DNA from: an uncultured delta proteobacterium
Lineage (GTDB): Bacteria; Desulfobacterota; Desulfobaccia; Desulfobaccales; 0-14-0-80-60-11
DNA: 64,000 bases
Assembly: GCA_963796215.1 (NCBI GenBank)
Contig: CAWCKU010000020.1
Span: 29,030 to 93,029 of the forward strand
Direction of reading: 5' to 3'
The notes under the pieces were generated by a model. It was not told where the DNA came from. It worked only from the letters and a program-made list of their open reading frames with translations, and did not search any database. Of the stretch, positions 30,302 through 45,650 are shown piece by piece (position 1 is the first letter of the stretch; the number at the start of each line of letters is the position of its first letter). A program made the translations under genes and the position numbers.

Positions 30302-32712
30302 TCATTGAGCTTGATTAAAGGAAACAGCTTTCCCCTCATACATCTTCCAGGCGGCCTGGAAGGCGGTTTCAAAGGAACGCTGCTTGACGTGATGCCGGGC
30401 CGCCTGGCCCATCTTCCTTAATCTTTCCGGATCGGCCAGCAACCGGCTGATGGCGTTGTAGAGGCCCGCTTCATCGTCGCCGGGAACTATGATCCCGGTT
30501 TCACCGTCGCGGACATTCTCTTGCGGCCCCCCGGAATCGGTGACAATGACCGGGAGACCCGAAGCCTGGGCTTCTAAAACGACATTGCCGAAGGTATCCG
30601 TGGTGCTGGGAAAGACAAACAGATCGCATGAGGCGTAGACCTCGGCGAGCTCTTCTCCAGCCAGGTAGCCGGTGAAGACGCAGGAAGTGGCCGCCAGTTC
30701 CCGCCGCATCTCTTCCAAGTAGGGGCCGTCTCCCACGACTATCAATTTTAGGTCCGGATGGCTGGGTGCCAGGGTCTTGAAGACCGTGGCCAGGAGCTGC
30801 AAATTTTTCTCCTTGGAGACCCGGCCCACATAAAGAAGTTTTGGACCCTCCTTGACCTGATACCGCTTCTCCAGGACGCCGTTGCGCTTGGCCGGATGGA
30901 ACCGCGCCACATCCACTCCCCGGGGATAAAGGCGGATTTTCCGGGGTCGATCCCTCTCTGGTGCAATTCTTCAGCGGTGCTGCCGGAGGGTGCAAAGACC
31001 AGATCCATCTGATTGTAAAACCAGATGAGGTACTTCCACATCAGCTCTTCGATGCCGGCATCACCCGTTAAATATTGGGCATATTGAGGCAAAGCGGTGT
31101 GATAAGTGCTCCAGATCGGCAGGCCCAAAATCCGGGCGACCCCTAAAGCCGCCAGCCCCATGGGGCCCGGGGTGGCGGTCTTGATGTGGGTAAAATTCTG
31201 CTCATAACAATAATTGAGGATCTCCAAAAAAGGCGGATGGAATAGTTTCTGTTCGGGGTATTCCGGTAAATGAAAGACCCCGATGGGAGCGAAGTTGCGA
31301 ATCCCTTGCTGCTGCGGCCGGGCCTCGGTATCGCAGGTGATGATGGTATACTGCTTATCGGTTTTGATGGCGGCCTCGACCTGGCGCCTGAGGGTGAGTC
31401 CCACGCCGTTGACCTCATAGAAGGTGTCGGTAAAATGAGCCAGGTTGATCTGATCTATCTCATCGGCGCCTACCGATTCCTGCTTGAAGGAATGACGAAT
31501 TATTTGCTGCCCCAAGTTTCTGTCCTTGGAGAAAGAAGAGAACGAGGCAAAATAGGGAGTCAACCCTAAATAGATTATTCCGGATGAGGTGATGGAATTA
31601 ACTAAATCGATGAAATTGACTTCAGTCAGGGCTTTGCGAAAATGTCCGTGAAATTGTTTAATGATATTAATAGAGATATCATTAAGTATTCCGAACCACT
31701 GCGCCCCTGGCTTATTAGGCGATCCATTTTGTGGTATTTTAGTGGTCTCATTTAATATTAAAGATAAAAGCGTGTCATCTTGATTATTCTTCTGAGAATT
31801 CCTGAAATATAGTTTAATCTTATTACGATAATATTGATATCTGGTTAATTGGTTTTTGGGCTCTAAGTTGTTCTGCAGGAATCTCTCGAAAAAGCTGATA
31901 AAAAGACTGGAGTCGGCGTACCTGCCCAGGTCGTATTTATTTTTATAGAACTGATAGGCGATACTATACAGATTGTGGGCCAGGGTTAAGGGGGTGGAGG
32001 CCTGTCCTGTGGGCCTGGCCTTGCCGGAATCGAGGCCATGAAAAAAATGTCTTAGGTCCAGGGCTCCTGCCACCTGGGTAAACATGCGGGCGATATTCAG
32101 AGAACTATGGTCATCGGAACCGCCGGTAAAATTCTTCTGCCAGGGGTTATGAAAACCTGGCACGATCCCATGTTTATCCGCCAGGGCGCTGAAATCTGCC
32201 GGACTGAGTTGAGATAACCCCAGCTTTAACAATTCGTTCAAATGGGTGTCCCGGGCTCCATTCAGTTCAAAATTCTTGAAGAGCAGCAGGAATTTTTCGA
32301 AATGAACCGGGGCCAAGCGATCGTTGACCGCCCAAAAGGGATGGGCCAAACTATGGGGAATGCCTCTCTCCTGCAGAAAGTTGACTAAATCAAAGATATT
32401 TTCCCGGATTTTCTGGATGTCTCGATGCTGTTCTTCATTGATATCATAGACCAACACGTGCGCTTTGCAGCGGTCCTCCGGGAAATAGGTGGTCACTTCC
32501 TCGCTGATAAAGGTGTCCGGGAGGCCGGCGATTTCCAAACAGCCATCGATGACATTGTGGTCCGTAATGGTTACCAGGGACATACCTTTCTTCTTGGCCA
32601 GGCGGTAAAGAGTTTGGGGTTCGGTATAACATTCTTGACAGCCCAACTTTTGCAGGACCCATTGGGAGGGTCGGGTGGAGAATTTGGAATGAACGTGCAG
32701 GTCGATCTTCAT
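30302..32712 (-). CDS. PHP metallophosphoesterase fused to a GT4 glycosyltransferase (one frameshift near 30925)
   Basis: N-terminal IDLHVHS, ITDHN, LAHP and GGSDDH; C-terminal FTDTFYEVNGV, ATPGPMG, YHTALPQY, YVGRVSKEKN and DTFGNVVLEAQASG. Confidence 0.85.
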
Positions 32713-34402: not shown

Positions 34403-34753
34403 TTAACCTGAATTCACCTCCACACCATTCGGCAGGCCATTTAGGATAACCTCGCGGACTATGGCGCCGACTTCCTTCCGCAAGGCCCCCAAGCAGGTTT
34501 GCCCTTGCGGGGTGAGCTCGTAATATTTGCGGGCCCGCCCTTTAAAAATCCTGATCCGGGAATGCAGGAGATTGGCCTTTTCGAAGGTGTGCAGCAGGGG
34601 GTAGAGGCTTCCCGGGCTGATCTCATAGCCCTGGTTATGCAAGTATTTGCTCAACTTGCCCCCATAGATCGGCCCCAGACCGGCCTGATGCAGGACAACG
34701 AGTTTGACCATGCCCTGCCAAAATGTATGGGAGATCTGCTTTCCTAAATCCAT
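34403..34753 (-). CDS. PadR-family transcriptional regulator
   Basis: PIYGG...ISPGSLYPLLH...RKYYELTPQG. Confidence 0.88.
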   Translation of the reverse strand: MDLGKQISHTFWQGMVKLVVLHQAGLGPIYGGKLSKYLHNQGYEISPGSLYPLLHTFEKANLLHSRIRIFKGRARKYYELTPQGQTCLGALRKEVGAIVREVILNGLPNGVEVNSG

Positions 34754-34816
34754 ATATCGGATACTGATATATATCTGTTAGGAAATGATTAAGGTCTCAT
34801 TGATTTTTGGTTAAAT
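34754..34816 (-). promoter_or_regulatory. Probable PadR operator (imperfect palindrome ATATCGGATACTGATAT) plus a four-unit 11-bp array
   Basis: Minus strand ATTTAAC-4-AATCAAT-4-CCTTAAT-4-TCCTAAC at 34816-34777. Confidence 0.55.
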
Positions 34817-34859: not shown

Positions 34860-35159
34860 ATGGCCATGGCCATTTTGGATAACGGTTTTAAGGGCGCGGT
34901 GCCCAGCATTCTGGTGGTGTTAGGGGTGGCCCTGGCGGCCCCCATCGTTCTCCCCGCCGTGGCGGCGGTGTCCCGGCCGTTGGCCAAGACCTTAATCAAG
35001 GGTTATCTGGTCTTGTCCGACATGGCCAAGGAGTTTGCCGCAGAAACCGGCGAGCAGATCAGCGACCTGGTGGCCGAAGTCAAGGCCGAACGCGATGCCG
35101 CCGTGGCAGCTGAGGTGGCGGCTGAGCCGGAAACCAAGCCGGCCAAAGTAAAAAGTTAA
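34860..35159 (+). CDS. DUF5132-like small membrane protein
   Basis: Hydrophobic N-terminus, then RPLAKTLIKG...AETGEQISDLVAEVKAE. Confidence 0.75.
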   Translation: MAMAILDNGFKGAVPSILVVLGVALAAPIVLPAVAAVSRPLAKTLIKGYLVLSDMAKEFAAETGEQISDLVAEVKAERDAAVAAEVAAEPETKPAKVKS

Positions 35160-35180: not shown

Positions 35181-35753
35181 ATGGAAATCGAGGGCCTCAA
35201 AGTCGTCCATGCCCTGCCCGGCCGGGTGCGTCTCAGGGTCGCCAGGGTGAAGGGCAACCCGGCCCTGGCCCGCCAGGCCCAGGAGAGGCTTGCCCAGGTG
35301 CCGGGAATCCGACAGGTTGAGGCCAAACCTGGCACCGGCAGCCTCCTGATCCATTACGACACGGAGCGTTTACTCTCCCTGGCCTCCCTGGAAATCCTGT
35401 CGGCGACCTTGGGGGAACTCTTTCCCGAGATTGAGGTCGCCACTCTGATGGCCGGGCTGTTGTCGCTGACGGAAACCCCCGGCGCTAGGACCGGGTCGGC
35501 CATGGCCGTGGGCATCACCGATTCTTTCGGGGCCATCAATACAAAATTTGGGGAAATTACCGGAGGTCTCGACCTCAAACTACTGGCGCCCCTGGCCTTG
35601 ATCTTCTTCGGCTTACGCGGGCTGTGGATCTCTGAGAAGGTCCTCTCCCCTTCCTGGTCTAACCTGCTCTGGTTTGGCTTTGCCAGCTTTGTCATGCTGA
35701 ATCGCGGCCTGGTGGAAGGAAACAGCGGGGTTCCTGCGGAAAGAAAAGTCTGA
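35181..35753 (+). CDS. HMA2/CoBaHMA-domain protein with C-terminal membrane hairpin
   Basis: VVHALPGRVRLRV...TGSLLIHYD; C-terminal DLKLLAPLAL...PSWSNLLW. Confidence 0.8.
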   Translation: MEIEGLKVVHALPGRVRLRVARVKGNPALARQAQERLAQVPGIRQVEAKPGTGSLLIHYDTERLLSLASLEILSATLGELFPEIEVATLMAGLLSLTETPGARTGSAMAVGITDSFGAINTKFGEITGGLDLKLLAPLALIFFGLRGLWISEKVLSPSWSNLLWFGFASFVMLNRGLVEGNSGVPAERKV

Positions 35754-36076: not shown

Positions 36077-36466
36077 TTAAATCAAGGCGCCGACCAGCCG
36101 GCTCAGAGCGACTTCCATCAGGGTGGCCGCCACGGTGGCAGTCACTTTTTCCACCACTCCGTGCGGGGCTGCGGCTGGATTATTTTCGCCGCTACCCCTT
36201 TGACTGGGTTGAGACAGATACCCCACCTCTTTTAAGGAAGAGATGATGTCCTCCTGCTCAATGAGGCGGGAATTGTATAGGATCAGAACGTTCCCGGTGG
36301 TGGGATTGGCGGAAACATACTCGATCCCGGCAGCCTGCCGCAGGTGGCGCTCCACTTCCTGGGCCTTCCTGGCCGACCCCTTAACCTTGGGGACCTTGAT
36401 CCGGAGCCTACCTTCCAGGGCGTGAACATATAAAGAATCCACATTCATGATAGTCAATGCCTCCAA
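36077..36466 (-). CDS. HMA2/CoBaHMA-domain protein
   Basis: YVHALEGRLRIKV...ANPTTGNVLILYN. Confidence 0.8.
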   Translation of the reverse strand: MEALTIMNVDSLYVHALEGRLRIKVPKVKGSARKAQEVERHLRQAAGIEYVSANPTTGNVLILYNSRLIEQEDIISSLKEVGYLSQPSQRGSGENNPAAAPHGVVEKVTATVAATLMEVALSRLVGALI

Positions 36467-36488: not shown

Positions 36489-36544
36489 ATTTTTACCGCT
36501 GAAAGTTATGATTTAATATTATTAATGTTAGAATTTGGTTAATT
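36489..36544 (-). promoter_or_regulatory. Pho-box-like array
   Basis: Minus strand AATTAAC-4-TTCTAAC-4-ATAATAT-4-TCATAAC followed by TAAAAAT. Confidence 0.55.
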
Positions 36545-36751: not shown

Positions 36752-38053
36752 ATGAAAAAAATTTATATTTTGGATACCAACGTTTTATTGCACGATCCGG
36801 AATCCTTATTTTCTTTCGAAGACAACTCCATAGTTTTGCCGCTTTCAGTGATTGAGGAATTAGACCGCACCAAGAGGAGGGGGGATGAGGTGGGCAGAAA
36901 TGCCCGGGACGCATCCAGAAAGTTGGATGAATTGAGGCTGACGGGTCGTCTGGCGGAAGGGGTCGAACTCCCCAGCGGCGGCTCCGTCCGTATTGAATTA
37001 AACGGCATCAAAAATTACGACCTGTTGCACGGGGTCGATTTGAACACCGTTGATAATAGAATCCTGGCCCTGGCCTATCATCTCATGAACAGTGAAAATA
37101 GCCCGGTGGTGCTGGTTACCAAGGATTTAAACCTGCGCATCAAGGCAGATGTTCTGGGGCTCTCGACCGAGGATTTCTACAGCGATAAGGTCGATTATTG
37201 TAAGTTATATACCGGCGTCCACGAATTATATCTTTCTCAGCCGGAGATAGACCGGTTCTATCAAGATGGCTGCCTTGATTTTGGTCAGGATAATCTTCAT
37301 CCCCACCAGTTCTGCATCCTTAAGTCCCATGAAAACCCCTCCATCTCGGCCTTGGCAAGGTTTAGTGATAATAAACTCAACAGACTCTCATATGACGGCA
37401 AGATGGTTTACGGCATCAAAGGACTGAATAAGGAGCAGAAATTTGCCCTGGAACTGTTGCTGGATGATCGCATCAAGATCGTCACTTTAGTCGGTAAGGC
37501 CGGGACCGGCAAGACCATCCTGGCGTTGGCTGCCGGTCTGGAAAGAGTTTTTGAGGATAGCGGGAAATACAACCGGTTGCTGATAACCAGGCCGATTGTT
37601 CCGTTAGGCAACGACCTGGGTTACCTTCCCGGAGATAAAGAAGATAAAATCAGGCCCTGGATGCAGCCGATTTATGACAATCTGGAGTTTCTTTGTAATG
37701 AGCATATCCGGCCCAATGGCTCCACGGAATACTTGCTCACCAGCGGCAAGATCGAACTGGAGGCTTTGACTTATATCCGGGGCCGCAGCATCCCTCGCCA
37801 GTTCATTATCTGCGACGAAAGCCAGAATCTCAGCCCCCATGTGATCAAGACCATCCTGACCCGGGTTGGCCGGGGCAGCAAGATCGTCTTCACCGGGGAC
37901 CCGGAACAGATCGACCACCCCTATTTGGACGCCTCTTCCAATGGCTTGAGTTATTTGGTGGAAAGAATCAAAGAAGAAGGAATTTCCGGGCACATCACCC
38001 TGATCAAGGGGGAAAGGTCCGGCGTCGCTGAATTGGGGGCCAGATTGTTATAA
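36752..38053 (+). CDS. PhoH2 (PIN domain plus PhoH ATPase)
   Basis: ILDTNVLLHDP, DNRIL, VTKDLNLRIKA, GKAGTGKT, LGYLPG, YIRGRS, DESQN and GDPEQID. Confidence 0.92.
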   Translation: MKKIYILDTNVLLHDPESLFSFEDNSIVLPLSVIEELDRTKRRGDEVGRNARDASRKLDELRLTGRLAEGVELPSGGSVRIELNGIKNYDLLHGVDLNTVDNRILALAYHLMNSENSPVVLVTKDLNLRIKADVLGLSTEDFYSDKVDYCKLYTGVHELYLSQPEIDRFYQDGCLDFGQDNLHPHQFCILKSHENPSISALARFSDNKLNRLSYDGKMVYGIKGLNKEQKFALELLLDDRIKIVTLVGKAGTGKTILALAAGLERVFEDSGKYNRLLITRPIVPLGNDLGYLPGDKEDKIRPWMQPIYDNLEFLCNEHIRPNGSTEYLLTSGKIELEALTYIRGRSIPRQFIICDESQNLSPHVIKTILTRVGRGSKIVFTGDPEQIDHPYLDASSNGLSYLVERIKEEGISGHITLIKGERSGVAELGARLL

Positions 38054-38182
38054 GTAGTTCGTAGTTCCTTTAGCTACCTCTGTAGGTGATTTTTCCCACC
38101 GGGGTCTTACCGCGATTTCCTCCCCGCAGTCCCTCTATCGTTTGGCGATATATGTCGCCGTATCATTATTGTATGCAGTGAA

Positions 38183-38227
38183 TTTAGACATATCTTTAAC
38201 ACGTTCCTAACATTTTGCGTTTATGCT
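38183..38227 (+). promoter_or_regulatory. Pho-box-like array plus -10
   Basis: TTTAGAC-4-CTTTAAC-4-TCCTAAC-10bp-TATGCT. Confidence 0.62.
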
Positions 38228-38258: not shown

Positions 38259-38546
38259 TTGGAGGACATCGAAATCATCGCCTCGCGGCCGGGCCAGCTC
38301 AGTCTGGCCATAGCCAGAGTGAAAGATAATGACGCCCTGGCGCGGGAGGTGGAGTATCGTTTTGGGGCCATCAGTGGGATTCACCAGGTGGAGGCGGACG
38401 CGGTCCAGGGACTGGTGTTGATCGACTATGATAAACAGCGCTTGTCCTCCCTGAGCTTTCTGCTCCAACTGAAGGAGGCCTTTTCCGCCCTATTTCCTGA
38501 AGTCAGCGCCACCCAACTGGCTGCCTCGATAAGTCGCAGTCTTTGA
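38259..38546 (+). CDS. Degenerate HMA2/CoBaHMA-domain protein
   Basis: ARVKDNDALARE...GIHQVEADAVQGLVLIDYD...LFPEV closely parallels the 35181 N-terminus. Confidence 0.7.
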   Translation: MEDIEIIASRPGQLSLAIARVKDNDALAREVEYRFGAISGIHQVEADAVQGLVLIDYDKQRLSSLSFLLQLKEAFSALFPEVSATQLAASISRSL

Positions 38547-38630: not shown

Positions 38631-39320
38631 ATGGAGGTCCTTATGTCCCCCCCGGAAACTAAAGAGAGCAAGGGTATTGGGGAAATGCTGGGCGAAGCCG
38701 GTACCACCGTGAAGGATGGCATCGTCGGCAGCCTCAAGGGTTTGAGCGAGATCGAAGCCCAGATCGTCAGTCTGGCCCGCAACACCGTGACCGACGTCCT
38801 GAAGGGCACCGGCAGTGTGGCCAACGAAACCATCAATGTCAGCAAGGACGTCTTCAAAGGGGCCCTAAAGGCCACTGAAGAAGTCGGCACCAGCCTGCTG
38901 GTGACCACCAAGGACGTGGCTAAGGGCATTCTCCTGGGCGTTGCCGACGTGGGCGGCGATGTAGAGAAGGCCGCCGGCCAACTGGCCAAAGGCGCGGTCA
39001 AAGGCGCCGCGGAAGTCGGTGGAGATGTGGCCCAGGTGGCCAAAAGCGCGGTTACCGGCGTAATCGAAGCTACCCGTGAGATCGGCGGCAATGTGGGCGA
39101 GGCCACGAAATCGGCGGTGGGCGGCGCCATCGAAGCCGCCGGAACCCTGGGGCAGTCGGCGGTCAAGGCCGTCAGCGACATCCTGGTGGGCGCGGTTTCG
39201 GGCCTCAAGGAAGTGGCTTGCGCGGCGTGGCCGAAGTCAAAGGCAGAACCCGAGGCCCCTCCGGAGACCAAGCCGGCCCCCGAAGCCGAGAAAAAGCCGG
39301 TTAAGGGCAAAGGCGAGTAG
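38631..39320 (+). CDS. Gly/Ala/Val-rich protein of about eight tandem 22-aa repeats
   Basis: VAKGILLGVADVGGDVEKAAGQ / LAKGAVKGAAEVGGDVAQVAKS / AVTGVIEATREIGGNVGEATKS and similar units. Confidence 0.8.
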   Translation: MEVLMSPPETKESKGIGEMLGEAGTTVKDGIVGSLKGLSEIEAQIVSLARNTVTDVLKGTGSVANETINVSKDVFKGALKATEEVGTSLLVTTKDVAKGILLGVADVGGDVEKAAGQLAKGAVKGAAEVGGDVAQVAKSAVTGVIEATREIGGNVGEATKSAVGGAIEAAGTLGQSAVKAVSDILVGAVSGLKEVACAAWPKSKAEPEAPPETKPAPEAEKKPVKGKGE

Positions 39321-39523: not shown

Positions 39524-42500
39524 ATGGTCGAAGCGATACATACCGCCGTGGCGGGAAGGGCGAGGTTTAAGGTCGAGGGCCTGTACCGCTCAAAGTCCCT
39601 GGAGAAGCAGCTTGAGTGGCGTCTGGCGCGGCTGCAGGATATTTCCCTGGCCTCGGCCAATGCCCTCACCGGCAATGTCCTGGTCTGCTACAATTCAGGC
39701 AACACCCCGCAAACCATCGCCGCCTTAATCGAAGGGATCGTCTCCGAGTGCCAGAGCCAACCCCAACCTGCCCCTTCAGTTCCTGTCCGAGTAAGATCCA
39801 AGGCCGGCGCCGAGCCGGAAGATCAGGCCGGCGTCTTAGACCGGTTCAGGGGCCTCTTTACCTATCCGGCGGAGCAGCCGGCGGAGCCCTGGCATCGGCT
39901 GGAAGCCGAGGCGGCGTTAGCCAAGTGGCAGACTTCCCGGGAAACGGGTTTATCCCTCCAGGCTGTCCAGAGAAATCGCCAGAAATACGGCTCTAATATT
40001 CTGCCGGAAGCCGAGCCCCGATCCGGTTGGGAAATTTTTTTGAGTCAATTCAACTCCCTCCCGGTGGCCCTCCTGGGCGCGGCCGCGGGTCTTTCCATCG
40101 TCACCGGGGGGATGGTCGACGCCGTGCTGATCATGGGCGTGGTGGTCGCCAATGCCTTCATCGGCTATAAAACCGAAAGCGAATCCGAAAAGACCATTCG
40201 CTCCCTGCAAACCCTGGTGCGGCCCGCAGCCCTGGTCATCCGGGAAGGCCGGTTTGGCGAAATCCCTTCCGAAGAAGTGACCCCGGGAGACCTCCTGGTA
40301 CTCCGTCCCGGCAGCTATGTGGCTGCTGATGCGCGCTTGCTAGAGGCCAGCCACCTGTCCGTGGATGAGTCGGCTCTGACCGGGGAAAGCCTGCCGGTAA
40401 CTAAAAACCCCCAGGTCTTGGAACAAGAAAACATCCCCCTGGGAGATCGGCTCAACCTGGTCTTTATGGGCACTCTGGTTACCGGCGGCGAAGGTCTGGC
40501 GGTGGTGGTGGCCACCGGAAGTTATACCGAAATCGGCCTGATCCAGTCTCTGATCGGCGAAGCTTCCAGCCCGGAGACCCCCCTGGAAAGACAGCTTGGC
40601 CAGTTGGGCGACCAACTGGTCCTGCTCTGCCTTGGCATCTCCGGAGTGGTGTTTGTCATGGGGTTCGCCTGGGGCTATGGTTGGTTGGAGATGCTGCGCA
40701 CCTCTATCTGCCTGGCTGCGGCCGCGGTGCCGGAAGGCCTGCCCGCCGCGGCCACCACCACCCTGGCCCTGGGCATCCGGGACATGCGCAAGCACCATGT
40801 CTTGATCCGCCATCTGAATGCGGTGGAGACCTTAGGGGCGGTGCAGACCGTTTGCCTGGATAAGACCGGGACCATCACCCGCAATCAGATGTCCGTGCTC
40901 CAGATCTTTACCGGCATGAAGACCATCCGCGTGGCGGAGAATGGGCAATTCAGTGGGCCGGAAGGGCTGATTGAACCTTTTACCTGTGAAGAACTGGAAC
41001 AACTCCTCCAGATTTCCGTGCTGTGCAACGAAATTGAAATTTATCAGGAAGGCGGGGATTATGTCCTGCGGGGGACCCCCACGGAAGGCGCCCTGGTGCA
41101 CCTGGCGATCCTGGTGGGCCTCGACGTCACTGACCTGAGGGCGCGCTATCCCTTGCTGAGGGTGAATCACCGCTCGGAAAACCGCCTGTTTATGGGCACG
41201 CTGCATGATGATCCACCCGCCGGGAAACTTTCTGCCCTCAAAGGCAGCCCGCTGGAAGTTCTGGCCATGTGCTCCTGGCATCTCCAGGATGGCCGGAAAT
41301 TGCCGCTAACCGAGGAAGACCTGCAGCGCATCGAGGCTGAGAACGAGGAGATGGCGGGGCGGGCCCTGCGGGTCCTGGGGCTGGCCTATGCCCTGGGTCC
41401 TGATGAGTCCGTCTTTGAGGAGCTTGACGGCCTGGTCTGGCTGGGCATGGTGGGCATGGCCGATCCCATCCGGGAGGGGGTGGGCGAAGCGATCCGGGCC
41501 TTCCACCGGGCGGGGATCGAGACGGTGATGATCACCGGCGACCAGAGTCCCACCGCCCAGGCCATCGGCCAGGAACTGGACCTGAGCCAGGGGGACCCCT
41601 TGGAAATCCTGGACGCCACCCATCTGGCGGAGATCGAGCCGGATGTCTTGCGGGCCCTGGTCAAGAGGGCCCAGGTCTTTGCCCGCGTCAGCCCATCCCA
41701 TAAGCTGCAGATCGTCCAGGCCTTGCAGGGGGCCGGCAAGGTGGTGGCCATGACCGGCGACGGCATCAACGACGGCCCGGCCCTCAAGGCAGCGGACGTG
41801 GGCATTGCCATGGGCCGGACCGGCACCGATATCGCCCGGGAAGTGGCGGACGTGGTCCTGGAGAAAGACAACCTCGATACCCTGATCATCGCCATCCGGG
41901 ATGGCCGCACCATTTATCTTAATATCAGAAAGTCGGTGCATTTTTTCCTGGCCACCAATCTGAGTGAAATCATGTTGACCTTTACGGCCATTGCCGTGGG
42001 ACTGGGGTCGCCGCTGACCGCGGCCCAGCTCCTATGGATTAACCTGATCTCCGACATCTTCCCCGGATTGGCCCTGGCCATGGAGGCGCCGGAGCCCGAT
42101 ATCCTGGAGCGCCCGCCCCGCGATCCCCAAAGACCGATTTTCACCGGCTGCGGACTTCAAGAGGATGGCCTTTGAGTCCGGGGCGATCACCGCCGGGGCT
42201 CTTGGGGCTTATGGCTATGGCATGATGCGCTACGGGGGAGCCGCGGCCAGTACCATGGCCTTTCATAGCCTCACTACCGGGCAGCTTCTCCACGCCATCA
42301 GTTGCCGCTCGGAAACCCACACCATTTTTAGTCCCGGAGAAATTGCCTCCCAACCGGTACCTGACTATGGCCCTGGGGGGCTCATTGGTCATGCAATTCT
42401 TGACCATGGTGGTTCCCGGACTGAGAAGTCTGTTGGGTCTGGCTCCGGTGGGCCTCCTGGATGGCCTGGTAATTTCCGGCACCGCCTTGCTCCCCTTGGT

Positions 42501-42591
42501 GGTGAATGAAGCTACCAAAAAACCACCGGTTAATGGGGTAAATGAGGTCCAGGAATCCAGCCTCGGAGTGAGCCAAAAAAGGACTCATTGA
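39524..42591 (+). CDS. P2A-type (Ca2+/Mn2+-like) P-type ATPase with N-terminal HMA2/CoBaHMA domain (frameshifts near 42145 and 42340)
   Basis: IHTAVAGRARFKV N-domain; TGES, VPEGL, DKTGT, GDGIND, M5 TNLSE and M6 WINLISD. Confidence 0.9.
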
Positions 42592-43790
42592 TGAAAAATG
42601 ACTTTATCTTCATGTCGGAGTCGGTAACCGAGGGGCATCCGGATAAGATGTGCGATCAGATCAGCGATGCCATCGTGGATCATTTCCTGGAACAAGACCC
42701 CCAGGCCCGAGTGCGCGCCGAATGTGCGGTGGCCACATCCATCTTGTTCATTGCCGCCCGGTTTGTCTCCGAAATTAAAGTCGATATCCCCAATGTGGCC
42801 CGCAAGGTCATCGGCCGGCTCGGTTACCTGCAACCGGACTTCGACGCCCGCACCTGCAGTATCTTAACCAGCCTGCAGGAGTATCCGTCGGATACGGACC
42901 TCTTTTTCAACGAGAACCAACTCTCCGAAGCAGAGATAGATAAGCTGCATGTGAGGCAACATGCCACTGCTTTCGGTTTTGCCTGCCGCCAGACCGCGGT
43001 CCTGATGCCCCTGCCCATCTGGTTGGCACATAAACTGGTCCGGCAGATGGACAGTGCCCGAGGTCAGAAACTGATCCCCTACCTGTCTCCGGACGGCAAG
43101 GCCCTGGTGGGCGTGGAATATAGGGATCGCCGGCCTTACCGCATTTATAGCCTTACAGTCGTCGCCAGCGGCTCCAGGGCGGCCGGCCATGAGGTCACCG
43201 ACCAGCGCTTGCATAACGACATTCGCGAAGCCGTGATCAAACCAGCCTTTGCCGATGAGGACATCAAACCGGACGACCGCACCCTGATCTTTATCAATCC
43301 ACTGGAACATCTCATGGTGGGCGGCCCGGGGGTGCATTCCGGGCTCACCGGCCGTAAGACCGACGTGGACACCTACGGGGAATATGCCCGCCATAGCGGC
43401 AACGCCTTGAGCGGCAAGGACCACTTGCGGATTGATCGAGTGGGGGCTTATGCGGCGCGCTATGCCGCTAAAAATGTGGTGGCAGCCGGCCTGGCGGAGG
43501 AATGCGAGGTCCATTTGGCCTATTCCATCGGCTTTTCCCGGCCAGTCAGTATTCAGGTGGAAACCTTCGGCACCGGCAAGTTCTCCGATGACGAGCTTTC
43601 CACCTTGCTGGAGCGTCACTTCGATTTTCGCCTGGCCGCCATTCTGCGGGATTTTAACCTGAGGCACCTTCCCGCTCTCAATAAAGGCCGCTTTTACCGC
43701 AAGCTGGCGGTCTATGGCCAGGTGGGGCGTCTCGACCTTAACTTGCCCTGGGAAGTTACCGACAAGGCCGAGATTCTCAAGGAACGTTAG
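42588..43790 (+). CDS. Divergent methionine adenosyltransferase (MetK) paralogue
   Basis: SESVTEGHPDK, GLTGRK and SGKD present; GAGDQG signature replaced by HVRQHA. Confidence 0.88.
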   Translation: MMKNDFIFMSESVTEGHPDKMCDQISDAIVDHFLEQDPQARVRAECAVATSILFIAARFVSEIKVDIPNVARKVIGRLGYLQPDFDARTCSILTSLQEYPSDTDLFFNENQLSEAEIDKLHVRQHATAFGFACRQTAVLMPLPIWLAHKLVRQMDSARGQKLIPYLSPDGKALVGVEYRDRRPYRIYSLTVVASGSRAAGHEVTDQRLHNDIREAVIKPAFADEDIKPDDRTLIFINPLEHLMVGGPGVHSGLTGRKTDVDTYGEYARHSGNALSGKDHLRIDRVGAYAARYAAKNVVAAGLAEECEVHLAYSIGFSRPVSIQVETFGTGKFSDDELSTLLERHFDFRLAAILRDFNLRHLPALNKGRFYRKLAVYGQVGRLDLNLPWEVTDKAEILKER

Positions 43791-44456
43791 ATGCACATCT
43801 CCCATTTATTGATCATTTTATTGCTGGCTATATCCTGCAACCTGGACAACGTTGGGGTGGGTATCGCTTACGGGGCTCGAGGGATCGGCATCCCCCTGGG
43901 GTCAAATCTCTTGATCGCCCTGGTCACGGCCGCAGGCACCGGGCTCTGTATCATTTTCGGGCAGCGAATCTTCCAAGTCTTGCCTGCCGAGGTTGGCGTT
44001 CTTTTGGGAGCCGTGTTGTTGGTCGGCATGGGGGTCTGGGTCATCCGCCAGGATATCGGCGAACGGAGCCGCCAGGACCAAGAGACCCCAGCCACAGGCC
44101 CCGCTGATGAGTTGGCCCAAAAGTCGTGGCTACGGCGGCTCATCCTGATCCTGCAACATCCGGTCCTCGCTGACCGAGACTCCTCGGGTCACATTGATTT
44201 AAAGGAAAGTCTCCTGCTGAGTATGGCCCTCATGCTAAACAATGTCCCCAACGGCGTTGGAGCCGGGCTGCTGGGGCTGTCGACCTGGCTCACCACCTTG
44301 TTGGTAGGGCTCCTGAGCGTGCTCACCTTCTGGGTGGGAATCGGCCTGGGCCGGAGTCTCGGGGTGCGCTGGCTGGGCCGGTACGCCGGCACGGTTTCCG
44401 GCCTGTTGCTCGTGGTTATCGGTTTGGTCGAAATGGTCCTGGCAATACAGTTTTAG
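43791..44456 (+). CDS. MntP/YtaF-family membrane protein (putative Mn2+ exporter)
   Basis: [31 protein letters not shown] and ALMLNN. Confidence 0.8.
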
Positions 44457-44963: not shown

Positions 44964-45650
44964 ATGGCTCACGAAAACATTTTAGTGGTGGAAGATGACG
45001 AGGACATCCTGGAACTACTCAGGTACAACCTGGCCAAGGAGGGCTACCGGGTAACCGCGATTACCTCGGGGGAAGACGGATTGCCACTCGCCCGCTCGAC
45101 CACCCCGGACCTGATCTTGCTGGATTTGATGCTCCCCGGGATAGACGGGCTGGAAGTCTGCCGGCGGCTCAAAATGGACCCCAAAACCCGGCAGGTGCCG
45201 ATCATCATGCTCACCGCCAAAGGGGAAGAAACGGACATTGTCACCGGTCTGGAGTTGGGGGCGGAGGACTACATCACCAAACCCTTCAGCCCCCGGGTAT
45301 TGCTGGCCCGTATTCGCACGGCGCTCCGACGCCACGGCGCGGCTACGCCAGGAGAGGATGCCCTGCTAAAAATCCATGACCTGACCATCAACCCCGGCCG
45401 CCACGAGATTCTGGTTCAGGGGAAATCTGTGGACTTGACGGCGGTGGAGTTCCGCCTCCTGCACCTGTTGGCGCGGAGGCCGGGCTGGGTGCTGACCCGG
45501 GCTCAGATTGTCGAAGGCGTGCATGGCGAAGACTATCCCGTCACCGACCGGGCTGTAGACGTAAAAATTGTCTCCCTCCGCAAGAAGCTGGGTCTCGCGG
45601 CCGAGTACATCGAAACGGTTCGAGGGGTGGGTTATCGCTTCAAAGACTGA
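44964..45650 (+). CDS. PhoB-like OmpR-family response regulator (no cognate kinase in window)
   Basis: LVVEDD, LLDLMLPG, LTAKGEE, DYITKPF, DRAVDV and IETVRGVGYRF. Confidence 0.88.
   Translation: MAHENILVVEDDEDILELLRYNLAKEGYRVTAITSGEDGLPLARSTTPDLILLDLMLPGIDGLEVCRRLKMDPKTRQVPIIMLTAKGEETDIVTGLELGAEDYITKPFSPRVLLARIRTALRRHGAATPGEDALLKIHDLTINPGRHEILVQGKSVDLTAVEFRLLHLLARRPGWVLTRAQIVEGVHGEDYPVTDRAVDVKIVSLRKKLGLAAEYIETVRGVGYRFKD

Follow-up and report, generated by a model that had tools for sequence, protein, structure and literature searches.

In canonical MetK (EC 2.5.1.6; PDB 1RG9, 8BB1), the methionine adenosyltransferase (MAT), the amino group of methionine is held by D238 and E55, its carboxyl by Q98 and K269, and its side chain by I102; the ribose hydroxyls are held by D163 and D238, F230 stacks on the adenine, R229 contacts the adenine via its backbone carbonyl, and H14 is the proposed acid for C5'-O5' cleavage (excerpts of PMC3853416 and PMC1282579). 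Archaeal MAT and eukaryotic MATX are divergent but active SAM synthetases, and the MAT pocket is in this sense rebuildable. For SAM synthesis, archaeal MATs hold the methionine carboxyl by other residues, and even they retain the equivalent of D238 (excerpts of PMC3853416 and PMC8727953). In MAT mutants, the tripolyphosphatase activity is separable from SAM synthesis, and the second half-reaction can outlive the first (PMC8703375, in excerpt).

The surroundings of the gene studied here also have described relatives. SPCA1 and LMCA1 of Listeria are P2A-type Ca2+(Mn2+)-ATPases. In Microcystis, ccyA, which encodes calcyanin and has been linked to intracellular amorphous CaCO3, lies in a neighbourhood where, as in our locus, DUF5132 and CoBaHMA/HMA_2 genes are found beside a calcium transporter; the excerpted text on this neighbourhood contains no MetK or P-type term (bioRxiv 10.1101/2024.07.07.602159). 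The mycobacterial PacL/CtpC metal-efflux platforms are similar in that small membrane-anchored Glu/Ala-rich proteins are encoded with a P-type ATPase, and differ in having a P1B zinc pump and, as described, no MetK-like partner (PMC9374683).

We analysed a stretch of 64,000 nucleotides from the genome of an uncultured delta proteobacterium, here called the window, which carries a gene for a MetK-like protein, MetKx, behind a P2A-type ATPase gene (Table 1). MetKx resembles canonical MetK in its fold, in its sequence (about 41% identity), in its modelled dimer interface, in its triphosphate/Mg/K ligands and in H14 and D163. Unlike canonical MetK, it has E55, Q98, I102, D118, G120, D238 and K269 replaced and an unconstrained gating loop, falls in a separate clade, occurs as an extra copy beside canonical metK, and is tied to a P-type ATPase. 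This partner pump has the PEGL, DKTGT, TGES and M6 motifs in common with SPCA1 and LMCA1, and differs from them in its extra N-terminal HMA_2 domain and its MetK-like partner; the ion that it carries is a prediction. Our tentative reading is that MetKx may be a Mg/K-dependent tri- or polyphosphate hydrolase serving the pump.

Table 1. Features of the window around the MetKx gene
Feature	Coordinates	Strand	Remarks
DUF5132 small membrane-anchored protein	34860..35159	+	Pfam
HMA_2 protein with hydrophobic C-terminal part	35181..35753	+	Pfam
Small HMA_2 protein	36077..36466	-	Pfam
PIN-PhoH protein, local neighbour	36752..38053	+	Domain matches
TTAAC-N6-CTAAC 11-bp repeat, Pho-box-like, weak	38196..38212	+	Shared with only 1/8 close relatives
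Small HMA_2 protein, first gene of likely operon	38259..38546	+	Pfam
Gly/Ala/Val-rich repeat protein	38631..39320	+	No Pfam/NCBIfam match; 14/42 loci
P2A-type (SPCA1/LMCA1-like) cation ATPase, N-terminal HMA_2 (CoBaHMA-type) domain	39524..42591	+	Two +1 frameshifts near 42149, 42335
MetKx (MetK-like protein), 399 aa	42591..43790	+	R57, H249 and R280 in the remodelled methionine pocket; triphosphate/metal ligands retained
MntP/YtaF-family membrane protein, directly 3' of MetKx, local neighbour	43791..44456	+	Domain matches
OmpR-family response regulator, best match PhoB	44964..45650	+	245.5 bits, below cut-off 296.2

The MetKx protein and its active site

The initial annotation had read a full-length ORF from 42588 to 43790. 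The gene is indeed full-length, at 399 codons for amino acids, and only its start moves, 42588 being a TTG one codon before the ATG at 42591, where the relatives also start. MetKx has all three MAT Pfam domains (N, M and C; PF00438, PF02772 and PF02773), scores 355.8 bits against the metK equivalog TIGR01034, whose cut-off is 309.4, and has only solved MATs among its PDB sequence matches (45 sequences); neither a CYTH nor a PPX domain was found among its Pfam matches. In a plasmid search with MetKx, the best 25 matches were canonical-type proteins, 42-47% identical, with one further record at 60-80%.

Structure prediction, which had been proposed as a check, returned the MAT fold: the AlphaFold model (pLDDT 81.6, lower at residues 245-275 in the monomer) matches E. 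coli MAT at a TM-score of 0.87. The homodimer model reached 0.93 and the best control 0.01, a value that conveys likeness only since like dimers have already been solved; of 30 solved pairs, 20 come up to the mark for this comparison, as does 1 of 23 single chains. At least 98% of the contacts are common to the homodimer runs, and pLDDT is at least 91. R57, R122 and residues 247-258 lie at the interface of this model, which may reflect memory of solved MATs.

When MetKx was formally aligned with the MetK of E. coli (NC_000913.3), every call in the list of retained and replaced residues that had been drawn up by eye was reproduced. The residues kept in MetKx are H16, D18, E44, D168, K170, R255, K256, K276 and D282, equivalent to H14, D16, E42, D163, K165, R244, K245, K265 and D271 of E. 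coli, among which H14, D16, E42, K165, R244, K245, K265 and D271 are the ligands of triphosphate, Mg and K. The replaced residues are E55 (R57 in MetKx), Q98 (Y98), D238 (H249), K269 (R280), G117/D118/Q119/G120 (R122/Q123/H124/A125, so that the GAGDQG motif becomes HVRQHA) and R229/F230 (H240/L241), and additionally I102 (T102) and S99.

It had been claimed that the methionine and adenine pocket was lost, the retained residues binding metal and triphosphate and the replaced ones methionine and adenosine. This holds for the methionine site, which is fully replaced, but only partly for the adenosine site, which is probably still intact in part, as D163, a retained residue, is a ribose-hydroxyl ligand (PMC3853416, in excerpt), and position 230 is still Phe in 45 of the 83 family sequences compared below. 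The change at R229 says little, because this residue binds adenine by its backbone carbonyl.

The MetKx family and the second metK

Judging from sequence, MetKx is a member of a distinct MetK-fold family, separate from canonical MetK and present in Desulfobacterota, Cyanobacteria, Nitrospirota and Proteobacteria. We compared 83 family sequences (83 loci, 82 genomes) with 61 canonical MetKs. E42, R244, K245, K265 and D271 are conserved in 83/83 and H14 and D16 in all 81 sequences without a gap, while D163 is kept in 82/83 and K165 in 74/83; the nine members with K165 replaced are L224 and eight other loci, one of which also has Cys in place of K17. At the replaced positions, D238 is His in 83/83, K269 is Arg in 82/83, E55 is Arg in 78/83, and G120 is never kept, being V, A or S in all 83; D118 has become N in 57 sequences and Q in 10 and remains D in 11. 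Q98, S99, D101 and I102 are invariant in the 61 canonical sequences and unconstrained in the family. The family-wide changes are H249, R280 and R57, plus the loss of G120, Q98 and I102, whereas Y98, H240 and Q123 are local states of the window's MetKx. The family also has a C-terminal conserved patch with an insertion (F346, R347, F355, L360, P361, F368) that is absent from canonical MetK.

Since D163 is kept in 82/83 and F230 in 45/83, continued nucleotide binding fits better than a pure polyphosphatase. In a transferase or nucleotidase of this kind, ATP or another NTP would still be bound, and either an anionic nucleophile at R57/H249/R280 or water would attack C5', with release of PPi and Pi. 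A transferase with an anionic acceptor would explain the kept D163 and H14; the hydrophobic character of position 230 is also kept, and the former amino-acid site is faced by three basic residues that never vary. We nevertheless rate this activity as unlikely: there is no constraint on the gating-loop residues S99, D101 and I102 or on Q98, position 230 is not always Phe, 9/83 members lack K165, and no substrate-supplying or product-using enzyme was found to be conserved near MetKx in the mapped loci and scanned neighbours.

In a quick IQ-TREE run, giving an unrooted tree with no clade test and with 23 ungrouped rows left uncounted, 61 family rows stood apart from the 24 canonical ones (branch 0.67, SH-aLRT 100). 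The phylogeny proposed by the initial annotation accordingly recovers a distinct group that shares the substitutions and, at 79 of 80 loci, the ATPase neighbour. The substitution pattern is common to the best 119 relatives of MetKx (66-96% identity), so that the substitutions are conserved among close homologues, where drift had been suggested to leave them unconserved. The dN/dS of MetKx against nine relatives is 0.19-0.23, compared with 0.16 for one canonical pair and 0.07-0.09 for two cyanobacterial pairs. A decaying duplicate, or drift, might be suspected from the adjoining ATPase gene, which is frameshifted twice in the window's assembly, but these frameshifts are absent in relatives, and with the pattern shared by the 119 relatives and dN/dS at about 0.2 we give this explanation virtually no credence; at the family level it is refuted. 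The earlier impression that the gene is not decaying is thus borne out by substitutions fixed across the clade and by purifying selection.

With a profile of 37 sequences and a calibrated cut-off, members were found in 18/301 cyanobacterial genomes, 26/301 genomes of the window's phylum, in which Desulfobaccales are the closest named relatives, 12/400 genomes of the class with a betaproteobacterial member and 26/151 genomes of the phylum with a Nitrospirae member; each of these samples included a carrier known beforehand or was built around one. The representatives at 50% identity contain members that diverge further; long-branch members (P0123, P0127, P0129, P0132, P0135-P0137, P0139, P0147, P0224 and P0240; about 42-49% identity) have shortened gating loops. 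Outside the family, the MetK-like proteins P0155, P0179, P0202, P0205, P0208 and P0261 have altered methionine or metal residues and are possibly further repurposed paralogues. Many canonical MetKs of about 790-880 aa (P0323-P0404 range) contain intein/LAGLIDADG domains (PF14890, PF14528).

All named members, those of cultured strains included, are annotated as methionine adenosyltransferase or hypothetical. Among cultured strains, Nostoc PCC 7524 has a member (P0291). One M. capsulatus protein (P0304) belongs to the family, and an excerpt of the genome paper of that species gives two divergent metK genes as 'redundant'. Our literature search, whose coverage excluded most subscription papers and supplements, found no description of the family. 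MetKx is a real, widespread and apparently undescribed repurposed MAT paralogue, whose function we infer.

The window's genome has a canonical metK elsewhere, beside ahcY-like and panC/panD-like genes (named from their translations). A second metK, with at least 53% identity to this canonical copy, is present in 76 of the 79 other carrier genomes; one of the remainder has an unlisted second match, and two are draft genomes that show MetKx only. These two drafts would suit a MetKx that is still a SAM synthetase, be it a stress isozyme or a booster for the SAM-using enzymes of the island, as would the score above the metK equivalog cut-off, the full MAT fold and the pocket variation tolerated by archaeal MATs: altered pockets can still work, since archaeal MATs, in the excerpts cited above, use different carboxyl ligands. 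Against this, the two acids that would bind the amino group of methionine have become basic residues (Arg and His), and no conserved acid lies near the E55 and D238 positions in the 83 family sequences to replace them. The D238 equivalent is kept even in those archaeal MATs, whereas it is His in 83/83 of the MetKx family, and SAM synthesis is for these reasons very unlikely. In addition, the window's methyltransferase gene recurs in 3/42 loci only, and its SAM-type enzymes are not conserved neighbours of MetKx, as the ATPase is. We therefore share the earlier view that MetKx is probably not a SAM synthetase, given the fixed clade-wide substitutions and the canonical metK elsewhere, and that a booster is unlikely. 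A MetKx that makes SAM appears highly improbable, and the capacity for SAM synthesis has very probably been lost.

The partner ATPase and its module

The ATPase ORF as assembled ends at 42175, and its C-terminus continues across the two frameshifts. The two extra bases are likely assembly errors, as the contigs of close relatives have one base fewer at about 42148-50 and at about 42332-39, a nearby glycosyltransferase gene is also split, and such breaks occur in three other long-contig assemblies; in relatives, the ATPase gene is intact (1013-1014 aa). Once both frameshifts are read through, the final TGA of the ATPase overlaps the ATG of MetKx. The translational coupling that had been noted for the two genes has this overlap in its favour and holds provided that both extra bases arose in assembly.

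The split gene, a PHP-like/GT4 glycosyltransferase (30302-32712, minus strand), has an intact 812-aa relative in L016. A lipid-remodelling set may be made up of this gene, the phosphatidylserine decarboxylase-like gene and the methyltransferase gene.

The pump keeps the DKTGT, TGES, M4 PEGL, M5 N/E and M6 N-x-x-[ST]-D motifs, and its truncated ORF falls below the PMR1 and SERCA equivalog cut-offs. Its closest solved relatives, by profile (E 1e-217 and 1e-211) and by fold, are SPCA1 and LMCA1, and the pump is on that account predicted to transport Ca2+ or Mn2+.

The C-terminus of the ATPase lies upstream of MetKx, on the same strand and within 1.3 kb, at 79 of 80 loci; the 80th starts at a contig edge. 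Counting from the pump, which a search with two candidates scored per genome found in 21/301 and 27/301 genomes, MetKx lies behind it in 44 of the 48 pump genomes (one frameshifted), while three have no MetKx within 1.5 kb and one ends at a contig edge. The distances of MetKx and ATPase correlate at 0.81 (59 pairs; the best of 999 permutations gave 0.32), and 29/56 splits are shared, which shows co-inheritance only. Apparent fusions of the two proteins were discarded: the frame of 1367 codons in G821 is GC-rich and off-frame, and three of 106 longer proteins (P0319, P0320 and P0362) are single-copy chimeras in which a deletion joins part of the ATPase to part of MetKx.

The linkage raises the possibility of a ligand-sensing regulatory subunit. 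The retained site of the dimer would take up ATP, PPPi or polyP, with slow or no turnover, and the dimer would dock on the pump or on the HMA_2/DUF5132 scaffold, and switch the pump. The dependence is one-way, MetKx never being seen without the pump and the pump lacking MetKx in 3/48 genomes; the stop/start overlap, the co-inheritance, the family-specific C-terminal patch and insertion, and the dispensable K165 (replaced in 9/83) point in the same direction. Such a sensor accounts for the strict linkage and the C-terminal patch better than the hydrolase does. The near-invariant metal and phosphate ligands and the new invariant pocket residues are, however, what catalysis would demand, no genuine MetKx-pump fusion was found, and we consider a sensor somewhat unlikely.

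Maps of 42 loci and of 20 longer ones give as the core of the module DUF5132, one or more HMA_2 proteins, the HMA_2-headed ATPase and MetKx, in many cases joined by a Gly-rich repeat protein. The Gly/Ala/Val-rich repeat protein is frequent in the module outside Cyanobacteria and conserved across three phyla; an Atlas search with it returned unnamed clusters only and no family. The window further holds a metallohydrolase gene. Neither a polyphosphate kinase nor an exopolyphosphatase was found among 109 scanned neighbours (107 of 211 representatives, a repeat, and a further protein that was added).

Upstream of the operon, at 38143-38158, there is a near-palindrome whose core, CGATATAT, is conserved in 9/9 aligned relatives; it may be bound by the PadR/Rv3488-like regulator encoded at 34403-34753. 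In the cyanobacterial loci L143-L147, L150 and L153, recurring small genes (clusters 13, 17, 18 and 24) lie beside the module in place of Pho genes and by eye look like general-stress genes. Two ccyA-bearing Methylococcus species also carry MetKx, a number too small to mean anything.

Pho-type genes occur within the fetched stretch at 14/61 family loci and 0/38 canonical loci, as do divalent-cation transporters (14/61 and 0/38); both counts are overstated, the queries coming from the family's own loci and the controls being largely one family. Pho-box-like repeats, a pattern chosen after viewing the window, lie upstream at 14/58 loci against 2.6 expected, distributed as 8/21 in the window's own phylum, 5/11 in Proteobacteria, 1/17 in Cyanobacteria and 0/9 in Nitrospirota; on the reverse strand, they occur at 11/58 loci. 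The Pho link of the module is probably real in some lineages, patchy, and not general.

Three TTAAY-N6-CTAACA repeats lie less than 3.5 kb apart inside the window, at 34776-34792 (-), 36526-36542 (-) and 38196-38212 (+). An E. coli-type Pho box was rejected for the window (8 matches, 6.7 expected), as was a loose TAA-repeat, with 44 sites in the 3.7 Mb genome and without clear Pho bias; among the sites listed, this repeat stood upstream of 0/4 PBP_like_2 genes.

A possible role for MetKx

Under the tentatively preferred hydrolase reading, MetKx would act as a predicted homodimer that makes no SAM and would serve the pump as an accessory, cleaving the terminal phosphate from tripolyphosphate or from polyphosphate chains of short length. 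Hydrolysis would take place at the old triphosphate site and depend on Mg and K. A longer phosphate chain could pass through an anion channel lined by the gating loop, which is unconstrained, and by the newly acquired Arg57/His249/Arg280; a basic triad and a free gate are in keeping with the entry of an anionic chain into the retained Mg/K site. The pump would remove or re-store the divalent cations freed by phosphate-polymer mobilisation, and the two would act in this way in many lineages under phosphate starvation. Against the hydrolase stand the lack of a polyphosphate kinase or exopolyphosphatase among the 109 scanned neighbours, the patchiness of the phosphate link and the three genomes that keep the pump without an adjacent MetKx, and no result explains why a phosphatase is tied to a pump.

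On balance, we think it rather probable that in MetKx a protein of the MAT fold has for the first time a task beyond SAM synthesis, namely as a subunit that processes or senses polyphosphate or triphosphate within an undescribed bacterial machine for calcium-phosphate handling, composed of an HMA_2-headed P2A pump with DUF5132 and HMA_2 scaffolds, present in at least four phyla and mislabelled as metK. MATs have been treated as a family with one reaction, and a repurposed MAT working with a calcium-type pump would, if true, add a new enzyme or regulator to those built on this ancient fold. It would also correct a systematic misannotation of metK and connect phosphate polymers with the handling of divalent cations, a link that, as cultured carriers exist, could be tested directly.
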